Assembly: GCF_051307035.1 (NCBI RefSeq) | Contig: NZ_CP195536.1 | Coordinates: 1,680,001-1,712,000 of the forward strand | Source: Psychrobacter sp. DM4 | GTDB lineage: Bacteria > Pseudomonadota > Gammaproteobacteria > Pseudomonadales > Moraxellaceae | Direction: 5' to 3' | Length of the DNA: 32,000 bases | Shown here: one piece after another, positions 9,673 to 18,032 of the stretch | How the letters are laid out: the number at the start of each line of letters is the position of its first letter | Numbering within the stretch: the first letter of the stretch is position 1 | Program-made: the position numbers and the translations under genes | The notes under the pieces: model-generated | The model's database searches: none | Seen by the model: the letters and a program-made list of their open reading frames with translations, nothing else | Told to the model about the DNA's origin: nothing

Positions 9673-9897
9673 GTCTGCTAGATATAAAGTAGCTTGCTAC
9701 CATACATGTATTAACAAGCTGATAAGACTTATATTTGTAGCGATAACATAGCTCCTACTGCCTCTTTATAGCTCAATACTGACCCTTGAAAAATCACTTA
9801 CCGGCCACTATATATAGTGCATAAAGTGATTCGACTAAGCTTACTGGTATAAAAAAAAGCTTATCGGGCGCTACCAAACAACAATAAGGACTCTACT

Positions 9898-10311
9898 ATG
9901 AGTAATGATTCAAACAACACTATTGATCAAGGCAACCTCACTCAAAACCAAAATCAAGCGACAAAAGCGGATAACAAAAAGGACGTTAAAGTCACTGAAT
10001 TGGTTGCCAATGACGGTATCTTAAAAGGCAAAAAAACCGATATTCAAAATCCTGAGCTATGGGACTTTCCCATGGACTACCCGATGAGCATCATCGGTCA
10101 CGAAGGCGAGCATGAGAACTTACTCAATGAAGTCAAGCTAATCCTTGGCAGTCAGTTTCCAGATTTTGATTTGGCATCCATTCAAGTCAAACCGTCCAAG
10201 ACAGGGCGCTTTCATTCAGCTCGCGTTAATTTGTATTTGACTGAAGCTCAGCAAGTCAACGCCCTCTATGCAGCACTCGATGAGGCCAAGACGGTACGTA
10301 TGGTAGTGTAG
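9898..10311 (+). CDS. DUF493 / YbeD-family protein with an N-terminal extension
   Basis: The C-terminal ~85 aa are collinear with E. coli YbeD: FPMDYPMSIIG..., VKPSKTGRFHSARV..., ending VRMVV (E. coli ends VRMVL). A good SD, AAGGA, lies upstream of the ATG. Confidence 0.75.
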   Translation: MSNDSNNTIDQGNLTQNQNQATKADNKKDVKVTELVANDGILKGKKTDIQNPELWDFPMDYPMSIIGHEGEHENLLNEVKLILGSQFPDFDLASIQVKPSKTGRFHSARVNLYLTEAQQVNALYAALDEAKTVRMVV

Positions 10312-10598: not shown

Positions 10599-10643
10599 GG
10601 CTATATTGTGCCTACTTAACAACAAACACGCTATATGTAGTGC
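10599..10643. promoter_or_regulatory. Candidate NrdR boxes upstream of nrdA
   Basis: ACGCTATATGTAGTGC (10628-10643) matches about 13/16 of the published NrdR-box consensus acaCwAtATaTwGtgt. A weaker CTATAT-core site, GGCTATATTGTGCC (10599-10612), is centred 30 bp upstream. Tandem boxes about 3 helical turns apart are the typical arrangement. Confidence 0.4.
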
Positions 10644-10803
10644 TCGGTGAATTTTCTTGTCACTAGGGCTACGGTATCGTTTGGCTCAAAAAAAGTGCAC
10701 GGTATGCGTAATGTTTGGAACGATGAATGTTCAAGACTACATGTCGTACTATAAAAACAATCGCTAAGATTTTGGCAGATAACAACATTAAATGAGGGAC
10801 AAC

Positions 10804-13080
10804 ATGACACATATCGATACGATAAAAGTAACCAAACGCGACGGACGCTTAGAACCTATTGATTTAGATAAAATTCATAAGGTGATTGAGTGGGCAGCCG
10901 CAGATTTGGATAATGTGTCAGTGTCACAAGTTGAGCTCAAATCACACATTCAGTTCTATGAAGGCATCAAAACGCGCGACATTCACGAGACGATCATCAA
11001 ATCTGCCGCTGATCTGATCTCAGAGGAGACGCCTGATTATCAATACCTTGCTGCTCGCCTTGCCGTCTTTCATCTACGCAAAATCGCCTACAATCAATTT
11101 GAGCCGCCACACCTCTTTGATCATGTGACCACGCTTACCAATGCAGGCAAGTACGATGAGCATATCCTAGCCGATTATAGCCGCAGCGAATTCGATGAGT
11201 TAGAAGACTACATGGATCACTGGCGCGATATGAACCTCGCCTACGCTGCTGTTGAGCAAATGGCGGGCAAATACCTCGTGCAAGATCGCGTCTCCAAAAC
11301 CGTTTTTGAGAGTCCGCAGTTTCTGTATATGCTGGTCGGTATGTGTCTATTTGCCAATTATGACAAAGCTGAGCGATTAAGCTACGTCAAACGCTTTTAT
11401 GATGCCACCTCACAGTTCAAAATCTCACTACCGACACCAATCATGTCCGGTGTGCGTACGCCATCGCGTCAGTTTAGCTCCTGCGTACTGATCGAATGTG
11501 GTGATAGCCTAGACTCTATTAATGCCACCACCAGCGCTATCGTGCGTTATGTGTCACAGCGCGCAGGTATCGGCATCAACGCCGGTCGTATCCGTGCCCT
11601 TGGTAGCCCAATCCGTGGCGGTGAAGCGCAACATACGGGCTGTATCCCCTTCTATAAGCTATTCCAAACAGCAGTGAAATGCTGTTCACAAGGTGGCGTG
11701 CGTGGTGGGGCTGCGACCCTCTTTTATCCATTATGGCATTTAGAAGTGGAATCGTTACTCGTCCTCAAAAATAATCGCGGCGTTGAAGATAACCGCGTAC
11801 GTCATATGGATTACGGCGTACAGATTAATAAAACTTTATATACGCGCTTAATCAAAGGCGAAGACATCACGATATTCTCCCCAGGCGATACGCCAGGCTT
11901 GTATGATGCATTCTTTGAAGATCAAGACAAATTCGAAGCGTTGTATACCAAATACGAGCAAGACGAGTCTATTCGTCAGCGCAAAATTCCTGCGTCAGAA
12001 CTATTTAGCTTGATGATGCAAGAGCGCGCCAGCACGGGTCGTATCTATATTCAAAACGTCGATCATTGCAACACCCATAGCCCGTTTGATGCGACGGTTG
12101 CGCCAATTCGCCAGTCCAATCTATGTATGGAAATCGCTTTACCGACCAAACCGCTTGATAACATCAATGACGAAGCAGGCGAAATCGCCCTGTGTACGCT
12201 ATCTGCGGTCAATCTAGGTAAAGTCGATAACGTCAGCGACATCGAAGAGCCTGCCGAGTTGATCGTTCGTGCGCTTGATGCCCTACTCGACTATCAAGAC
12301 TATCCAGTTAAAGCGGCTCATAATGGCAGTATGCGTCGCCGTACGCTCGGTGTTGGCGTCATTAACTATGCCTATTACTTAGCCAAGAATGGCGTGCGCT
12401 ATTCCGACGACTCGGCATTGGGTCTCACCCATCAAACCTTTGAAGCATTACAGTACTATCTGTTAAAAGCGTCAAACAAACTAGCGAAAGAACAAGGCGC
12501 GTGCCCTGCCTTTAATGAGACGACGTACTCGCAAGGTATCTTGCCGATTGATACTTATAAAAAGGACTTGGATAAGATCTGCCAAGAGCCACTACATCTC
12601 GATTGGGAAACGCTACGGACTGAGATTACCGAACACGGTCTGCGTAACTCTACCCTAACCGCGCTGATGCCGTCTGAAACCTCCAGTCAGATCGCCAACG
12701 CGACCAACGGTATCGAGCCACCACGCGGCCTGGTCTCTATCAAAGCGTCGAAGGATGGCATCCTCAAGCAAGTCGTGCCTGAGATCGAAAAGCTACGCGG
12801 TCAATACGAGCTACTGTGGCAAATGCCGAATAATGACGGCTATCTCAAACTCGTCGCTATCATGCAGAAGTTCGTTGACCAAAGTATCTCAGCCAATACC
12901 AACTACGATCCGGTTCGTTATGAAGGCGGTCGTGTGCCGATGAAGATATTGCTCAAGGATTTACTCAACGCCTATAAGCTTGGGGTGAAGACGTTGTATT
13001 ATCACAATACCCGTGATGGTGCGAATGATGCGCAAGCGGATATGGAAGATGATTGTGCTGGCGGTGCTTGTAAGATTTAG
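10804..13080 (+). CDS. nrdA: Class Ia ribonucleoside-diphosphate reductase alpha subunit NrdA
   Basis: ATP-cone VTKRDGRLEPIDLDKIHKV, active-site SNLCMEI, and a C-terminal redox tail CAGGACKI (E. coli has CESGACKI). The start is placed at ATG 10804 because GAGGGA lies 5 nt upstream. The in-frame ATG at 10792 is an alternative. Confidence 0.95.
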   Translation: MTHIDTIKVTKRDGRLEPIDLDKIHKVIEWAAADLDNVSVSQVELKSHIQFYEGIKTRDIHETIIKSAADLISEETPDYQYLAARLAVFHLRKIAYNQFEPPHLFDHVTTLTNAGKYDEHILADYSRSEFDELEDYMDHWRDMNLAYAAVEQMAGKYLVQDRVSKTVFESPQFLYMLVGMCLFANYDKAERLSYVKRFYDATSQFKISLPTPIMSGVRTPSRQFSSCVLIECGDSLDSINATTSAIVRYVSQRAGIGINAGRIRALGSPIRGGEAQHTGCIPFYKLFQTAVKCCSQGGVRGGAATLFYPLWHLEVESLLVLKNNRGVEDNRVRHMDYGVQINKTLYTRLIKGEDITIFSPGDTPGLYDAFFEDQDKFEALYTKYEQDESIRQRKIPASELFSLMMQERASTGRIYIQNVDHCNTHSPFDATVAPIRQSNLCMEIALPTKPLDNINDEAGEIALCTLSAVNLGKVDNVSDIEEPAELIVRALDALLDYQDYPVKAAHNGSMRRRTLGVGVINYAYYLAKNGVRYSDDSALGLTHQTFEALQYYLLKASNKLAKEQGACPAFNETTYSQGILPIDTYKKDLDKICQEPLHLDWETLRTEITEHGLRNSTLTALMPSETSSQIANATNGIEPPRGLVSIKASKDGILKQVVPEIEKLRGQYELLWQMPNNDGYLKLVAIMQKFVDQSISANTNYDPVRYEGGRVPMKILLKDLLNAYKLGVKTLYYHNTRDGANDAQADMEDDCAGGACKI

Positions 13081-13101
13081 GTTTTTTAGCAACTAGTGAG
13101 G

Positions 13102-13128
13102 ACACACTTCAACATTGAAGAAGTGTGT
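13102..13128 (+). terminator. Hairpin just after the nrdA stop, a possible weak terminator or attenuator
   Basis: ACACACTTC ... GAAGTGTGT inverted repeat (9 bp) around AACATTGAA. It is followed by an AT-rich run rather than a clean U-tract, so its terminator function is uncertain. Confidence 0.35.
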
Positions 13129-13246
13129 TAAATATATATAAATCACCACTATCAATAAATGTCTTCTCAAAGCATAAGACTAATTTATGAGCCAACTGTA
13201 AAGAAACAATCAATCTAACGACTTAGTTTTCAAAAGGAATTCTTCT

Positions 13247-14242
13247 ATGGTTGCTAGCTTTAACAATTTAAATGAAAACAGTCCGAAAAAACAAGGTATT
13301 GAAGTAGTAAATACAACAAGCATAATTACTCCCAAAATATATCAGGACATTTATCATCAAATTACTGGTAGAACTGAAAAGATATCAAAAACCTACGATG
13401 ACAACCTTCTAGTTAGCTTCGAAGAAGTCAAACAACTGCACATAAAAATACTACAAATAAAAGATATTCATGAAATTTTAGCACAAAATGAAACTATCAC
13501 TATATTCTATGCTGGTGATAGAAAGGAAATCTTTACTTCCTTCGCAAGATTTGAAAAATATAATTCCAGCAATACAAAACCAACAGTAAGCTTGATACTT
13601 AAGTATAACTTTTCACTTTTACTAGCTGGTACTTCAGCACCTCAAGAGTATGTAATAACAATAAAATTATCATCTAGGCTTTCTATTATTGAATCTTTAG
13701 AAGAGAAAAAACCTAGATTTATACCTCAGGGTTTGATAAATGCATTTACTTCTGATACTGCTGAAATTAATGTTGAATATGTAGATTACTTAGTTGCAAG
13801 TACCTATCTTCATTCTTTCGACGAATGGATTACTGGTTGCCCTACAAATCCTAGTAATAAGATACTAATACGGGCGCAATCTCTTTCTCATTACATCCCA
13901 AGAATAATTCAGCTAGCTATTATAATTGTTTGTGTATTTTATTATGATATTTATATAGGTACGTTACCAGACTACTTTAATAGAGATTGGGGACAATTCT
14001 TTTTATACTCTTTGGTAGCTTTTTTCATACTAATAAAACTAGCATTTATGATTGGCAGAAAAATTGAAAGATACTTAGATAGCTTTCAACAGGATTCTTA
14101 TTTAGATCTAAATAAAGGGGACTCCAAACTAATAGCCAACTCTTCCTATAAAAGAAGGAAAACTTATCTAAAGATTTTCTTTCAGTTATGTTTAACTGTT
14201 ATTTTAGGTATTATTAGTTCGAAAGTTTCTATACTATTTTGA
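13247..14242 (+). CDS. Orphan hypothetical protein with a ~210-aa soluble N-terminal domain and three predicted C-terminal TM helices
   Basis: A 331-aa uninterrupted ORF in a strikingly AT-rich segment. SD AAAGGA lies about 8 nt upstream of the ATG. Hydrophobic segments are IIQLAIIIVCVFYYDIYIG, FFLYSLVAFFILIKLAFMIG and IFFQLCLTVILGIISSKVSILF. I recognise no family motif. Confidence 0.7.
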   Translation: MVASFNNLNENSPKKQGIEVVNTTSIITPKIYQDIYHQITGRTEKISKTYDDNLLVSFEEVKQLHIKILQIKDIHEILAQNETITIFYAGDRKEIFTSFARFEKYNSSNTKPTVSLILKYNFSLLLAGTSAPQEYVITIKLSSRLSIIESLEEKKPRFIPQGLINAFTSDTAEINVEYVDYLVASTYLHSFDEWITGCPTNPSNKILIRAQSLSHYIPRIIQLAIIIVCVFYYDIYIGTLPDYFNRDWGQFFLYSLVAFFILIKLAFMIGRKIERYLDSFQQDSYLDLNKGDSKLIANSSYKRRKTYLKIFFQLCLTVILGIISSKVSILF

Positions 14243-14258
14243 TGATATGCTTAGAGCT

Positions 14259-14371
14259 GTAGGGTGGGTTAGCCAAAGCGTAACCCACCATGGATATTTA
14301 AAAATGATACAAACGGTGGGTTAGTTTTATCAAATTCTCTACGAGAATTTGATAAAACTAACCCACCCTAC
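14259..14371. repeat. REPIN-like inverted doublet of GTAG-headed REP elements
   Basis: The left copy (+) is GTAGGGTGGGTTAG-CCAAAGCG-TAACCCACC at 14259-14289. The right copy (-) has the same head and tail, GTAGGGTGGGTTAG...CTAACCCACC. It is expanded to a perfect 25-bp stem (14315-14339 pairing with 14343-14367) with a 3-nt loop. The heads face outward. Confidence 0.85.
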
Positions 14372-14404
14372 GCCCAAATAGCAATAGCAATAGTGATAAG
14401 GGTT

Positions 14405-14470
14405 GTGGGGTGCGGCCAGCGCACCGAAGATATCAAAGTTAAGTACGATGGTGCGCGAGGCACACCCTAC
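14405..14470. repeat. Second, divergent REP-like inverted doublet
   Basis: The (+) copy is GTGGGGTGCG-GCCAG-CGCACC at 14405-14425. The (-) copy is GTAGGGTGTGCC-TCGC-GCACC, read from 14470 downward. It shares the GT(A/G)GGGTG head and the outward orientation of the first doublet but has a different stem sequence. Confidence 0.6.
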
Positions 14471-14547
14471 AAATTACGCTTATATAATAAAGTGTTCAAG
14501 AAGTGCGAATGGTGCTCAAACTAGGCTTTTTAGCTCCGACTGTAGCG

Positions 14548-14655
14548 GTATCCTGCCAACGCTGATGGCGATGCAGGCTGTGGCTGGTCGTAGTATCGAG
14601 GCAACAGGAATGCGACCAGACACAATAGACTGCACGCCAGCGGCTAGGCAGATAC
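14548..14655 (+). other. Long imperfect hairpin (~108 nt), either a candidate structured RNA or an extended REP-type palindrome
   Basis: Nested complementary blocks:
- 14548-14557 with 14647-14655
- 14560-14564 with 14638-14642
- 14568-14570 with 14635-14637
- 14572-14576 with 14630-14634
- 14579-14582 with 14621-14624
- 14584-14590 with 14613-14619
The apical loop is 22 nt. GTAG sits just 5' of it (14542-14545). Confidence 0.35.
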
Positions 14656-14763
14656 AAGCGGTAGGCGGGATGAGCTACCCAATAACCATACGATGATACA
14701 CAGAGACTCAAGCTTTAACGCTATAATAAAAATATAGAACCACAGACAGCGGAGGCTGTAGAC

Positions 14764-15093
14764 ATGGCATATACCGCAATCATCAAAGACGGTGGGCTCT
14801 TTATCCCTAATGTATTTTCAGACCTAGACGATGGCAGCTCGCATATCGTACAAGTGGAGCTAGATCTGGACGAGGTACGCGAACAACTTGAGATAACTGA
14901 CGCACCCAAAGAGACAAAAACGGTAAAAAGAGCGCCAAAGAAACCACCAAAAAAAGCCACATCGAAACAAACGCAAGATACTGAAACCAGTATGCTTGGT
15001 AAAGGCGATATCGGTGAGCTACAAGGACTCAATGATATGGAGCTAAGTGAGATTATAAAAGCCTACATGAATGACGAATCAGAATCATCATAG
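14764..15093 (+). CDS. Small hypothetical protein (109 aa) with an N-terminus resembling AF2212/DUF104 antitoxin-like proteins
   Basis: A strong SD, GGAGG (14751-14755), lies 8 nt before the ATG. The N-terminus [34 protein letters not shown] fits the DUF104 pattern (xAxYxNGvfxP...l.egxxvxvxi). It is followed by a K/P-rich stretch ([14 protein letters not shown]) and an acidic tail. Confidence 0.6.
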
Positions 15094-15163: not shown

Positions 15164-16297
15164 ATGACGTATTCAATCTTTAATCAAACGCCAAATAATG
15201 CGCTCACCGAGCCAATGTTCTTTGGTCAGCCGGTCAATATTGCCCGTTATGACCAGCAAAAGCATCCGATTTTTGAGCAATTGATTGAAAAGCAGCTGTC
15301 GTTTTTTTGGCGTCCTGAAGAGGTTGATGTCTCAAAAGATCGTATCGATTATGGCAATCTGTCCTCGCATGAGCAGCATATTTTCATTAGTAACCTTAAG
15401 TATCAGACCCTACTCGACTCGATCCAAGGTCGTAGCCCTAATATTGTACTGCTGCCACTGGTATCTATCCCTGAGCTTGAGACGTGGATTGAGACGTGGT
15501 CATTTAGCGAGACTATTCACTCGCGCAGCTATACCCATATCATTCGTAATATCGTCAATGATCCGGGTATTGTGTTCGATGATATTATGCAAAACGAGCA
15601 TATCTTGGAGCGCGCCTCGGACATCGCAGGCTACTATGATGAGCTGTATCGCAACTCGCAGCTCTATAGTCTATACGGGGCGGGTACGCATAATGTCAAT
15701 GGCGAAGAGATTACCGTTGATTTGCGCTCACTCAAAAAGCAGCTGTATATCTGTATCATGGCGGTCAATGTCTTGGAGGCGATTCGCTTTTATGTGTCGT
15801 TCGCCTGCTCGTTCGCCTTTGCTGAGCGTAAGCTGATGGAAGGTAACGCCAAGATTATCAAACTCATTGCTCGTGATGAGGCGCTACATCTAACGGGTAC
15901 GCAGCACATGCTCAACCTCATGCGTCATGGCAAAGATGATCCTGAGATGGTCGAGATCGCCGCTGAGTGTCATGAGCAAGGCATCGAGATTTTCCGCAAA
16001 GCGGCTGAACAAGAAAAGGAGTGGGCGGGATATCTATTCAAAGATGGTTCGATGATCGGTCTGAATAAAGACATTCTGTGTCAGTATATCGAATATATCA
16101 CTAACTTACGTATGGAAGCGGTTGGCTTGCCATCAGCGTTCCCGAACTCGAAGTCTAATCCGATTCCTTGGATCAATACGTGGCTGTCCTCCGATAACGT
16201 ACAAGTTGCACCGCAAGAGACGGAGATCAGCTCATACCTCGTTGGTCAGATTGATTCGGACTTGTCAGAGAGTGATTTTGACGACTTTGAACTTTAA
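15164..16297 (+). CDS. nrdB: Class Ia ribonucleoside-diphosphate reductase beta subunit NrdB
   Basis: The start is set at ATG 15164. [56 protein letters not shown] is collinear with the E. coli NrdB N-terminus ([33 protein letters not shown]...). Di-iron ligand motifs are [13 protein letters not shown] and DEALHLTG. Confidence 0.95.
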
Positions 16298-16715: not shown

Positions 16716-18032
16716 TTACTGAGCGGCAGCGTCTTGCTCAAAGAGTTTCATCAGCTCCTCACGCATACGGTCGCGTTCGGCCTCTGACATCATTGGTGTA
16801 TCGCCATTATCTTGCAGGTGTGGATTGATACCACCGAGGCCCTCTTGTTGCATCGCAACGGGGCGCTGTACGGCTTCTTGTACTGGACGCTCTTCTAAGA
16901 CGATCTCGACTTCAGCGTTTTTGCCGCGGCGCAGTATTTGTGTCTTTAGCGCAGTGTTTGGCGGTTTGCGTGCTACATACTGGATGAGCGTATTAGCATC
17001 AGTCATCTCAACGCCATCAATCGTTAAGATCACATCGCCAATTTGCAAACCACTCTTGGCAGCAGGTCCTTGTGGTACGACGCTCAATACCTCAACCCCT
17101 GTTGTGGTTTCAAGCTGAGTGGGATCACGTAGCTGCGACTGAATCTCGATACCTAGCCAGCCACGACTGACGCGTCCGTCTTTGATCAGCGCATTCATCA
17201 CCTGCTCAACGAGTGCCGTTGGAATAGCGAAGCCAATACCCATCGAGCCACCAGAACGGGAGAAGATCACGGTATTGATACCGACCAGCTCACCGCGTGC
17301 ATCGACGAGTGCTCCACCTGAATTACCTGGGTTGATCGCCGCGTCTGTCTGGATAAAGTCCTCAAACTTATTGACGCCAAGACCAGTACGACCTGTGGCC
17401 GAGATAATACCTTGGGTCACCGTCTGACCCACCCCAAATGGATTGCCGATTGCAAGGGCCAGATCGCCAACACGGATAGGCTCTTCACGAAATCCTAATG
17501 GTGTCAGCCCCGTTATATCAACCCGAATGACTGCTAGATCACTGTCAGGATCAGTGCCGATAACTTTGGCTCGGCTTTTGCTCCCATCACTAAAAGCGAC
17601 GGTTATCTCATCGGCTTTTTCGACTACGTGAGCATTGGTCACAATATAGCCATCTGCTGATACAATCACGCCAGAACCTAAGTTGGTGGCGGCTGGTCCC
17701 TGCTGATCACCTTGATTTTCAAAAAAACGGCGTAGCACAGGATCATCTATATAGGGATGCTCTGCCATCGTTTGGGTGGTATAGATATTGACTACCGATT
17801 GCGACGCGCGCGCGACCGCGTCATGGTACGACGACACCGGAACAGGCGTGTCCAATATAGGAGATGCGGTTTGCTCGATAGGCTGCGCTCTTGGTGGCTC
17901 CCATGTTGCCTCTGATGGTGTTCTCATACTCGTAAACAACCAAACAAACGCGGCGATTACTATCAGTAGCAATATCCAAGGTAGCCATTTTAGTAAGCTG
18001 TTTTTGCTGTTGACATTACGAGACGATGACAT
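16716..18032 (-). CDS. Membrane-anchored periplasmic serine endoprotease, DegS/AlgW-like (S1C, single PDZ) with a C-terminal extension
   Basis: N-terminal TM LKWLPWILLLIVIAAFVWLF. Catalytic triad contexts are TNAHVV, DLAVIRV and GNSGGAL. There is one PDZ (GVEVLSVVPQGPAAKSGLQIGDVILTIDG). Confidence 0.85.
   Translation of the reverse strand: MSSSRNVNSKNSLLKWLPWILLLIVIAAFVWLFTSMRTPSEATWEPPRAQPIEQTASPILDTPVPVSSYHDAVARASQSVVNIYTTQTMAEHPYIDDPVLRRFFENQGDQQGPAATNLGSGVIVSADGYIVTNAHVVEKADEITVAFSDGSKSRAKVIGTDPDSDLAVIRVDITGLTPLGFREEPIRVGDLALAIGNPFGVGQTVTQGIISATGRTGLGVNKFEDFIQTDAAINPGNSGGALVDARGELVGINTVIFSRSGGSMGIGFAIPTALVEQVMNALIKDGRVSRGWLGIEIQSQLRDPTQLETTTGVEVLSVVPQGPAAKSGLQIGDVILTIDGVEMTDANTLIQYVARKPPNTALKTQILRRGKNAEVEIVLEERPVQEAVQRPVAMQQEGLGGINPHLQDNGDTPMMSEAERDRMREELMKLFEQDAAAQ

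Follow-up and report, generated by a model that had tools for sequence, protein, structure and literature searches.

Psychrobacter genomes carry, at the junction of nrdA and nrdB, a slot of highly variable content that is always filled and that is, by the predicted identity of its occupants, an anti-phage defence hotspot. This conclusion comes from the analysis of a 32,000-nucleotide stretch of the Psychrobacter sp. DM4 chromosome (contig NZ_CP195536.1, positions 1,680,001 to 1,712,000; hereafter the window) and of the corresponding loci in other genomes. In the window the slot holds an AT-rich open reading frame (ORF) for a protein of 331 aa, hereafter the 331-aa gene, the product of which joins a soluble N-terminal domain to three C-terminal transmembrane (TM) helices. 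The hotspot itself is the larger finding, and the 331-aa gene is a strong candidate, so far unproven, for the founding member of a new family of single-gene defence systems.

The nrdA-nrdB junction in Psychrobacter

The survey used a 109-aa ORF that directly precedes nrdB as an anchor. With its help 80 species-level GTDB loci, nearly all labelled Psychrobacter, were fetched, and complete junctions were analysed at 73 loci (72 species loci and the window). These and the other loci compared are cited below by L numbers where one has to be told from another. The distance between the stop of nrdA and the start of nrdB varied from 1660 to 5115 bp with a median of 2426 and was never short or empty, and NrdA and NrdB were 87-98% identical across the same set. 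The space between them is filled with approximately 71 unrelated protein clusters, the median GC content of the cargo being 0.32 versus 0.49 for nrdA. Almost all of this cargo is read in one direction: of 96 ORFs that reach 150 aa or more, 95 share the orientation of nrdA and nrdB. A first-pass annotation of the window, made from its sequence, had seen here a one-off insertion splitting an adjacent nrdA-nrdB pair, and this picture has to be abandoned, since the junction is occupied at every one of the 73 loci. Full-text literature searches turned up no paper on defence islands in Psychrobacter or on a hotspot between nrdA and nrdB.

Contents of the slot

The cargo was annotated by bulk PADLOC and Pfam scans of 45 representative occupants, followed by per-protein scans. 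The representatives gave matches to 352 PADLOC models and 34 Pfam families, the latter including SMODS, KAP_NTPase, ThsB_TIR, SLATT_6, S_4TM, STALD, SIR2_2, AIPR, RVT_1, Peptidase_C14, Prok-JAB and ThiF. The slot is regarded as a defence hotspot because complete known anti-phage systems are among its occupants. Thus, ThsA and ThsB of Thoeris were recognised at L084 (E-values 5e-192 and 3e-71), a cyclase and a 2TM effector of the cyclic-oligonucleotide-based anti-phage signalling system (CBASS) at L044 (6e-179 and 7.9e-87), a CBASS cyclase with E1-E2, JAB and a NucC-like nuclease at L055 and L086 (4.5e-205 for E1-E2), a fused PARIS AriAB at L037 (4e-191), DRT8 at L085 (2e-139), PDC-S20 at L022 (9e-90), PDC-S31 at L077 (6.4e-20) and a KAP/PifA-like giant protein at L032 (1.5e-15). 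No integrase, transposase or recombinase domain was present among the 25 of 34 slot Pfam families that were listed, and strains probably exchange the cargo through homologous recombination within the conserved flanking genes and modules.

The commonest cargo, C3/C4, is a two-gene cassette (77 aa and 295-310 aa) registered in 13 species (L080:3822-5051, L029, L030, L034, L039, L053, L058, L059, L065, L067, L069, L082), and it gave no PADLOC or Pfam match. Cluster C6, found at nine loci, is an unannotated protein of 375-405 aa with C-terminal TM helices; C11 and C31 are further common occupants as unannotated as the 331-aa gene. We consider the C3/C4 cassette and C6 as further candidate defence genes. 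Approximately half of the cargo types carry no annotation, and the slot may therefore serve as a discovery list for defence genes in cold-adapted and food-associated bacteria. A compact defence hotspot inside an essential conserved operon is apparently undescribed, and it should be accessible to amplification by polymerase chain reaction across Psychrobacter from primers placed in conserved nrdA and nrdB.

The 331-aa gene as exchanged cargo

In the window the 331-aa gene occupies positions 13247-14242 on the plus strand and is the sole clean ORF listed between nrdA and nrdB; the first-pass annotation was right in describing it as a single ORF with its own Shine-Dalgarno sequence (Table 1). It was also right in placing the end of nrdA, which encodes 762 aa, at 13080 and the start of nrdB at 15164, as follows from the ORF listing and from NrdB homology, which begins at that position and gives a product of 377 aa as called in relatives. 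Foreign composition, which had been estimated by eye as roughly 30% GC against mid-40s in the flanks, was borne out by calculation. GC content and GC content at third codon positions (GC3) are 0.297 and 0.217 for the ORF, 0.481 and 0.518 for nrdA, 0.462 and 0.540 for nrdB, GC of the whole window being 0.449, and the ORF forms the lowest-GC 1-kb stretch in all 32 kb (z = -3.8). GC3 of three measured alleles (window, L001 and L005) lies within 0.18-0.24 versus about 0.52 for the flanking genes.

The boundaries of the foreign DNA are sharp. In the nearest relative, L008, other cargo is placed between identical breakpoints, and the replaced DNA (Table 1) nearly coincides with the segment 13081-14258 singled out in the first pass. 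GC content of this cassette is 0.28-0.33 throughout, and its DNA aligns only to loci carrying a family member. The DNA of other loci ceases to match at 13078-13092, no more than about 12 bp from the nrdA stop, and the match resumes at approximately 14400. Among the 73 junctions the family occurs in three, namely the window, L028 (L001 is a second assembly of the same species) and L050. It was also found at the nrdA-nrdB junction on metagenome contigs L005-L007. For the homologues P0010 and P0006 the contigs are Psychrobacter-like and the location is the nrdA-nrdB junction. Slot alleles of the protein are only 49-62% identical, NrdA and NrdB of the same loci being identical by 93-96%; the identity is 49-60% among the window and the loci of P0010 and P0006, and the slot alleles of the survey match that of the window at 51-62%, against about 93% for NrdA. 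The 331-aa gene is thus horizontally exchanged cargo and not a core gene, because its composition is foreign, it is present in 3 of 73 junctions and the nearest relative carries other cargo in its place; in this respect the first-pass annotation, which took it for horizontally acquired, was correct.

The opposite assumption, according to which the ORF belongs to the Psychrobacter core or is spurious, has practically no probability. The same position in several Psychrobacter lineages might be taken as a sign of a core gene, but the gene is absent from 70 of 73 junctions and its composition is far from that of the host; occurrence in all relatives with host-like composition, named in the first pass as the sign of a lineage core gene, is the reverse of what was found. 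A spurious ORF is refuted as well: full-length homologues number in the hundreds, hardly differ in length and share conserved motifs, and the ORF is clearly coding. In a neighbour-joining tree all Psychrobacter slot alleles of the family fall in one deep clade, and the tree therefore points to an old lineage circulating inside the genus rather than to repeated import from other genera.

Immediately downstream of the nrdA stop the cassette contains a perfect hairpin (Table 1), which is devoid of a T-run and was not scored as a terminator. It is not kept in other loci because DNA similarity to them ends before the hairpin. Of the promoter proposed in the first pass, the two hexamers are indeed located where they had been placed, but sites of this type are no more frequent in the AT-rich stretch than in shuffled sequences (7 observed versus 8.1 expected), so that TTGAAG/TATAAA is a plausible and unproven promoter of the 331-aa ORF.

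Table 1. Sequence features of the nrdA-nrdB slot in the window (positions are those of the 32,000-nucleotide stretch)
Feature	Position	Strand	Basis or remark
nrdA, left conserved flank of the slot	10792-13080	+	93-96% identical to NrdA in 70 Psychrobacter loci
Variable cargo cassette	13085-14258	+	Replaced relative to nearest relative L008 (blastn stops at 13084, resumes at 14259)
Perfect 9-bp hairpin, ACACACTTC / 9-nt loop / GAAGTGTGT	13102-13128	+	Just 3' of nrdA stop, inside cassette
Candidate promoter-like hexamers TTGAAG, 16 nt, TATAAA	13115-13142	+	Positions verified in sequence
Shine-Dalgarno-like AAGGA	13234-13238	+	8 nt 5' of ATG of 331-aa ORF, read from sequence
Soluble alpha/beta N-domain (residues ~25-205), predicted cytoplasmic	13319-13861	+	AlphaFold2 models, invariant residues
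TM helix 1 (residues 214-237)	13886-13957	+	Hydropathy >1.5 over 212-241; AlphaFold2 helix 214-237
TM helix 2 (hydrophobic core, residues 248-271)	13988-14059	+	Hydropathy up to 2.44; AlphaFold2 helix 246-278
Juxtamembrane loop motif SYLxLNKGDxKLI (residues 283-296), basic TM2-TM3 loop	14093-14134	+	Alignment; short AlphaFold2 strand 285-287
TM helix 3, extreme C-terminus (residues 306-331)	14162-14239	+	Hydropathy; part of AlphaFold2 helix 290-330
Nested palindrome	14259-14371	.	Perfect 25-nt-arm hairpin 14315-14367 inside outer arms 14259-14272 / 14358-14371
Module A, GC-rich non-coding, ~75 nt	14402-14477	+	In 28 loci, always on + strand
Module B, GC-rich non-coding, ~150-165 nt	14519-14690	+	In 37 Psychrobacter loci (L008-L085, e.g. 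L011:5784-5965), always right of cargo
109-aa ORF, right anchor of the slot	14764-15093	+	GC 0.43, host-like; directly 5' of nrdB
nrdB, right conserved flank	15164-16297	+	87-98% identical across loci

Protein family and domain architecture

The label of an orphan, given to the gene in the first pass, did not survive database searches. A word-indexed search returned 46 homologues at E < 1e-66, each of 305-340 aa, unnamed and free of Pfam domains, which originate from DM4 itself (100% identical), P. piscatorii, Shewanella baltica, Salinivibrio and many metagenomes. Exhaustive phmmer search extended the family to 708 representatives of clusters at 50% identity (E <= 1e-3; 118 of them at E <= 1e-30), nearly all full-length (~325-345 aa), and its range covers Gamma- and Betaproteobacteria. 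The profile search gave 241 matches, every one labelled "hypothetical protein", and added Acidovorax, Nitrosomonas, Plesiomonas, Limnohabitans, Limnobacter, Zoogloea, Thiopseudomonas and Parasulfuritortus to the list of taxa. PDB sequences searched with the family profile yielded nothing at E <= 10. The 548-aa protein P0124 was considered as a possible fusion and discarded, as the extra N-terminal part appears to stem from a wrongly called start and adds no domain.

Phage or plasmid origin of the family was rejected, as it was found in none of 50,697 phage genomes and on only two contigs of IMG/VR, and a single distant homologue resides on a prophage-like Shewanella replicon.

The family alignment contains 25 invariant positions, concentrated in the N-domain and in the loop between TM helices 2 and 3. 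The N-domain accounts for 22 of them, including Y32, Q33, Y36, T40, G41, T43, E44, K67, R144, D180 and W194, and its conserved motifs are YQxIYHQITGRTE, FTSFxRF, PQEY, SR, EYxDY and FDEW. In the loop S284, G291 and D292 are invariant, and Y285, L288, N289 and I296 are conserved in at least 90% of sequences. Owing to its large size, constant length and invariant residues and to the absence of a fold match, the family is a candidate anti-phage system of the single-gene type that is both new and accessible to experiment.

Hydropathy revealed three hydrophobic segments at approximately 220-240, 250-271 and 308-331, and the AlphaFold2 model of the full-length protein (predicted local distance difference test, pLDDT, 81; predicted template modelling score, pTM, 0.70) consists of an alpha/beta domain (residues ~25-200) followed by helices 214-237, 246-278 and 290-330. 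The model of the N-domain only was of similar quality (pLDDT 80.7, pTM 0.75), and both models can be called confident. Both approaches agree with the first-pass description of a soluble N-terminal domain of about 210 aa followed by three TM helices with a basic loop. Since about 10 Lys/Arg residues are gathered in the TM2-TM3 loop, the N-terminus and this loop should, by the positive-inside rule, both face the cytoplasm. The N-domain had been described as lacking a recognisable motif, and neither profile nor Foldseek searches gave a significant match to it.

Triphosphate-tunnel proteins (CYTH/TTM) recur at the top of the non-significant Foldseek matches with both full-length and domain-only models, which raises the idea that the N-domain is a diverged CYTH/TTM-like tunnel barrel. 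The protein would then be a membrane-anchored enzyme or sensor acting on nucleotides or polyphosphate, similar in architecture to VTC, in which a tunnel domain is combined with three TM helices, and it could still serve defence. These weak matches include thiamine triphosphatase 5a65, PH1012 2dc4, Sulfolobus TTM 7ns*, 1yem, mimivirus capping triphosphatase 3bgy, VTC 9umg and 8i6v, viral LEF4 and capping enzymes. We regard this fold as very improbable. All the matches have E > 1e-3, TM-scores of 0.14-0.25 (0.18-0.25 for the domain-only model) and root-mean-square deviations above 11 Å, Med18/20 and PNPOx-like barrels score equally well, and no Pfam CYTH match was obtained at E <= 1. CYTH enzymes bear the signature EXEXK on the first strand, and here the first strand reads TEKISKTY. 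Pursued with the domain-only model, the CYTH/TTM assignment found no support.

Cluster C31 of the slot (L052:4647-5717, L057:2243-3295; 351-357 aa) repeats the layout of the 331-aa protein: about 200 aa of soluble domain are joined to three TM helices, with an SFIxLTN motif ahead of the third. It is at best a tentative remote member of the family, as the family hidden Markov model gave no match and the hhalign alignment was collinear but weak (probability 11%, E = 0.0027).

Possible function of the 331-aa protein

Since known anti-phage systems are found in this slot in other species of Psychrobacter, the 331-aa gene is a good defence candidate. Taking genomic context and architecture together, we lean, with some caution, towards a stand-alone phage-defence protein with a membrane-acting output. 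The ORF is one alternative cargo of the defence hotspot between nrdA and nrdB, genus-wide in Psychrobacter, and its product, anchored in the inner membrane, would act in phage defence on its own. The cytoplasmic alpha/beta domain (residues ~25-205) may detect an infection cue or perform a reaction, the cytoplasmic juxtamembrane loop (SYLxLNKGD) between TM2 and TM3 may link this domain with the membrane-embedded portion, and the three helices of the latter could compromise or gate the membrane, leading to abortive infection. Division of the molecule into a putative sensor and a putative effector, with membrane damage as the output, is part of this proposal. A similar idea was put forward in the first pass; the slot and neighbourhood contexts now speak strongly in favour of defence, and both the function and a membrane-disrupting mechanism are still inferred.

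Neighbourhoods in other genera were compared with that in the window. As noticed in the first pass, partner genes are absent: the family gene is always solitary and has no conserved neighbour (window, L001-L007 and L088-L100). No partner ORF is listed in the region 13081-14400, including an adjacent small cognate gene of the toxin-antitoxin type, and no cyclase, CD-NTase, TIR or other signal-generating partner adjoins the family gene in about 16 contexts. In Salinivibrio (L003) it lies directly upstream of SIR2 and DUF87/HerA; at L091 it stands at the edge of an island with a prokaryotic Argonaute, an MmeI-type enzyme, KAP, MZB and PLD; and at L090 it is placed between a filamentous prophage and a GmrSD fragment. 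At L088 and L098 it adjoins Phd/YoeB or ParE pairs and a type I restriction-modification system, at L097 DUF6602, NERD, Fic and BrnT, and on the Shewanella replicon it belongs to a prophage-like accessory cluster with CHAT, HNH and DUF2326. The gene is AT-rich relative to its flanks in all seven non-Psychrobacter loci compared in this respect, and, as a raw count, at least 8 of 12 non-Psychrobacter contexts have defence, toxin-antitoxin or prophage genes within 8 kb. Beside the island at L091, a gene of a Y1 (RAYT-like) transposase was observed directly downstream of the family member (L091:11150-11659).

Several observations weigh against the defence reading. The 331-aa protein has no match in Pfam, PADLOC, PHROGs or NCBIfam, and Foldseek returned nothing at E <= 1e-3 for the full-length model against PDB and BFVD and no significant structural match for the N-domain-only model. 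The sequence of the TM helices is poorly conserved and contains no conserved polar residues that could line a pore, which would fit a simple membrane anchor equally well. Several occupants of the slot are secreted or unannotated proteins, about half of the 45 cargo representatives have no Pfam match, and as not every occupant is demonstrably defensive, guilt by association is probabilistic here. The putative defence function is deduced from context and architecture.

The lack of conservation in the TM helices, as expected for an anchor, is also compatible with a phage block at the level of the envelope, for instance a block of DNA injection or interference with a phage membrane protein as in superinfection exclusion, the N-domain binding a phage component instead of setting off membrane damage and abortive infection. 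Slot and neighbourhood contexts would be the same in this case, and the divergence of alleles (49-62% identity versus 93% for NrdA) would suit recognition of fast-evolving phage proteins. Nevertheless such exclusion appears unlikely. Classical exclusion proteins are typically prophage-encoded, and the family is essentially absent from phage genomes; moreover, the large conserved domain is predicted, from loop composition and the positive-inside rule, to be cytoplasmic rather than periplasmic.

Some probability, though a small one, should be left for a non-defence accessory membrane protein riding the recombination hotspot, which may be a niche-specific factor for stress, for regulation of transport or for modification of the envelope, or else a selfish toxin of the addiction type. 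The slot does hold genes with no recognised defence domain, including those for secreted proteins, C3/C4 and C6, the family itself has no PADLOC match, and three outside contexts show no named defence system: the gene adjoins a split integrase at L096, lies in a block of unknown ORFs between HipA and NOV_C at L099, and is accompanied by insertion sequences IS110 and IS4 at L100. Most annotated occupants of the slot, however, are complete defence systems, and the majority of outside contexts contain defence, toxin-antitoxin or prophage genes in the vicinity, as counted above. The 331-aa gene is sporadic in its distribution, strongly AT-biased and deeply divergent between alleles, all of which typically marks defence genes. 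A stand-alone defence protein is still the reading towards which we incline.

Right edge of the slot and control of expression

To the right of the 331-aa gene the 2.1-kb spacer contains two GC-rich non-coding modules followed by the 109-aa ORF (Table 1). The cassette itself is bounded there by a nested palindrome, which the first-pass annotation had taken for a cluster of repetitive extragenic palindromic (REP) elements. The palindrome is present at the boundary as claimed, but the REP label finds no support within the 32 kb of the window, where the core of the motif is confined to 14263-14367, with a one-mismatch variant at 17424. Among 95 loci clusters of the motif occur only in L008, and single copies in L003 and L004 look like chance. 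In L008 the palindrome (90% identity) is located to the right of different cargo and must therefore be counted as part of the flank rather than of the cassette.

Module A contains GGTGCGGCCAGCGCACC-type hairpins and is often located about 80 nt upstream of a Phd/ParE pair. A 97-aa "ORF" spanning modules A and B in the ORF listing is spurious. The alignment of module B has 73 invariant columns, its 3' half being nearly invariant, and RNAalifold predicted 34 pairs, three of which show compensatory double changes; in L008, L052 and L077 both arms of the apical hairpin are swapped. Against Rfam module B gave nothing at E <= 1. Module B may represent a structured RNA, or else a leader preceding the small ORF and nrdB.

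The 109-aa ORF has 117 relatives in GTDB species genomes, and the 80 of them that were retained, nearly all from Psychrobacter, are always found at this position. Its N-terminus and C-terminus (LSEIxKAYMND) are conserved, and the middle part is variable and lysine-rich. It has no family match in Pfam, PADLOC, PHROGs or NCBIfam; its N-terminus may resemble the folds of DUF104/AF2212-like antitoxins.

At approximately 26 loci (e.g. L001:9432-9960, L024:5430-5958), in about a third of species, module B is separated from the small ORF by a PhdYeFM/ParE pair (83 and 95 aa, 83-100% identical between species), the position of which does not vary. The pair is absent from the window. It is a module independent of the 331-aa gene and may stabilise the slot.

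Two palindromes resembling NrdR boxes are located about 31 bp apart upstream of nrdA (10599-10643), and none was found between nrdA and nrdB. The best NrdR-box-like match in the window, CCACTATATATAGTGC (9805-9820), lies upstream of a DUF493 gene at 9898. The spacer of the window contains no terminator-like site. Across the 73 spacers 43 terminator-like sites were registered on the sense strand versus about 24 expected from block shuffles, i.e. they are not depleted, and the plus/minus asymmetry of such sites follows the A>T skew. Read-through of cargo from the NrdR-controlled nrdA promoter as a general rule was considered and is unsupported, since terminators are not depleted; it is retained as an improbable speculation. 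Co-orientation of the cargo does not find its explanation in terminator depletion either. A link to DdaA, the WYL regulator of DNA damage and defence in Moraxellaceae, was also considered and set aside, as the DdaA paper contains no mention of nrdAB.

In its most far-reaching form the defence reading would make the 331-aa protein a new single-protein immune module, with an unseen sensor fold wired to a three-helix membrane effector, and the slot a purpose-built expression site for interchangeable cassettes in the NrdR-controlled operon of ribonucleotide reductase. Its cassettes would be induced upon depletion of deoxynucleotides by phage or replication stress, and the RNA-like module together with the small ORF would restore nrdB expression behind any cargo. 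We consider this whole scheme as quite unlikely.

Comparison with known systems

At the nrdA-nrdB junction of the phage T4 genome resides mobE, a free-standing HNH homing endonuclease (PMC2790892), and the first-pass annotation had drawn an analogy with it. The likeness of two foreign free-standing genes between nrdA and nrdB is positional only. The 331-aa gene encodes a membrane protein, belongs to a bacterial chromosome and represents a family absent from phage genomes. No HNH or GIY-YIG nuclease domain was found in its product by Pfam and PHROGs searches, and as the slot shows no sign of a mechanism driven by an endonuclease, the analogy was dropped.

In the joining of a soluble domain to a small TM bundle the protein resembles 2TM effectors of CBASS and Pycsar, S_4TM and SLATT proteins, and SLATT_6, S_4TM and a 2TM effector sit in the same slot in other Psychrobacter species. 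Unlike them, it gives no SLATT, S_4TM or 2TM match in Pfam or PADLOC, the true members from the slot being recognised at 1e-70 to 1e-87; it has no adjoining signal-generating partner, and the order of its parts is the N-domain followed by three TM helices. With single-gene abortive-infection systems, such as lactococcal Abi genes and the PDC-S series of PADLOC, the 331-aa gene shares its solitary state, AT-richness, sporadic occurrence and location in defence neighbourhoods, and PDC-S20 and PDC-S31 candidates occupy the same slot. It differs from the PDC-S series in that the protein matches none of the 5027 models of PADLOC-DB v2.0.0 at E <= 1.

Defence hotspots and variable slots flanked by core genes are known in E. 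coli, Pseudomonas and Vibrio. The Psychrobacter slot is similar to them in its conserved flanks, sharp breakpoints and variable AT-rich contents dominated by recognised defence systems, as well as in the presence of other cargo in closely related genomes. In contrast to them, it lies inside a normally single essential operon (nrdA-nrdB-yfaE), is never empty, carries cargo in nearly perfect co-orientation and is small, usually accommodating one system of 1-4 kb. Its right edge is distinctive as well, being furnished with a small ORF, non-coding modules and, often, a Phd/ParE pair.

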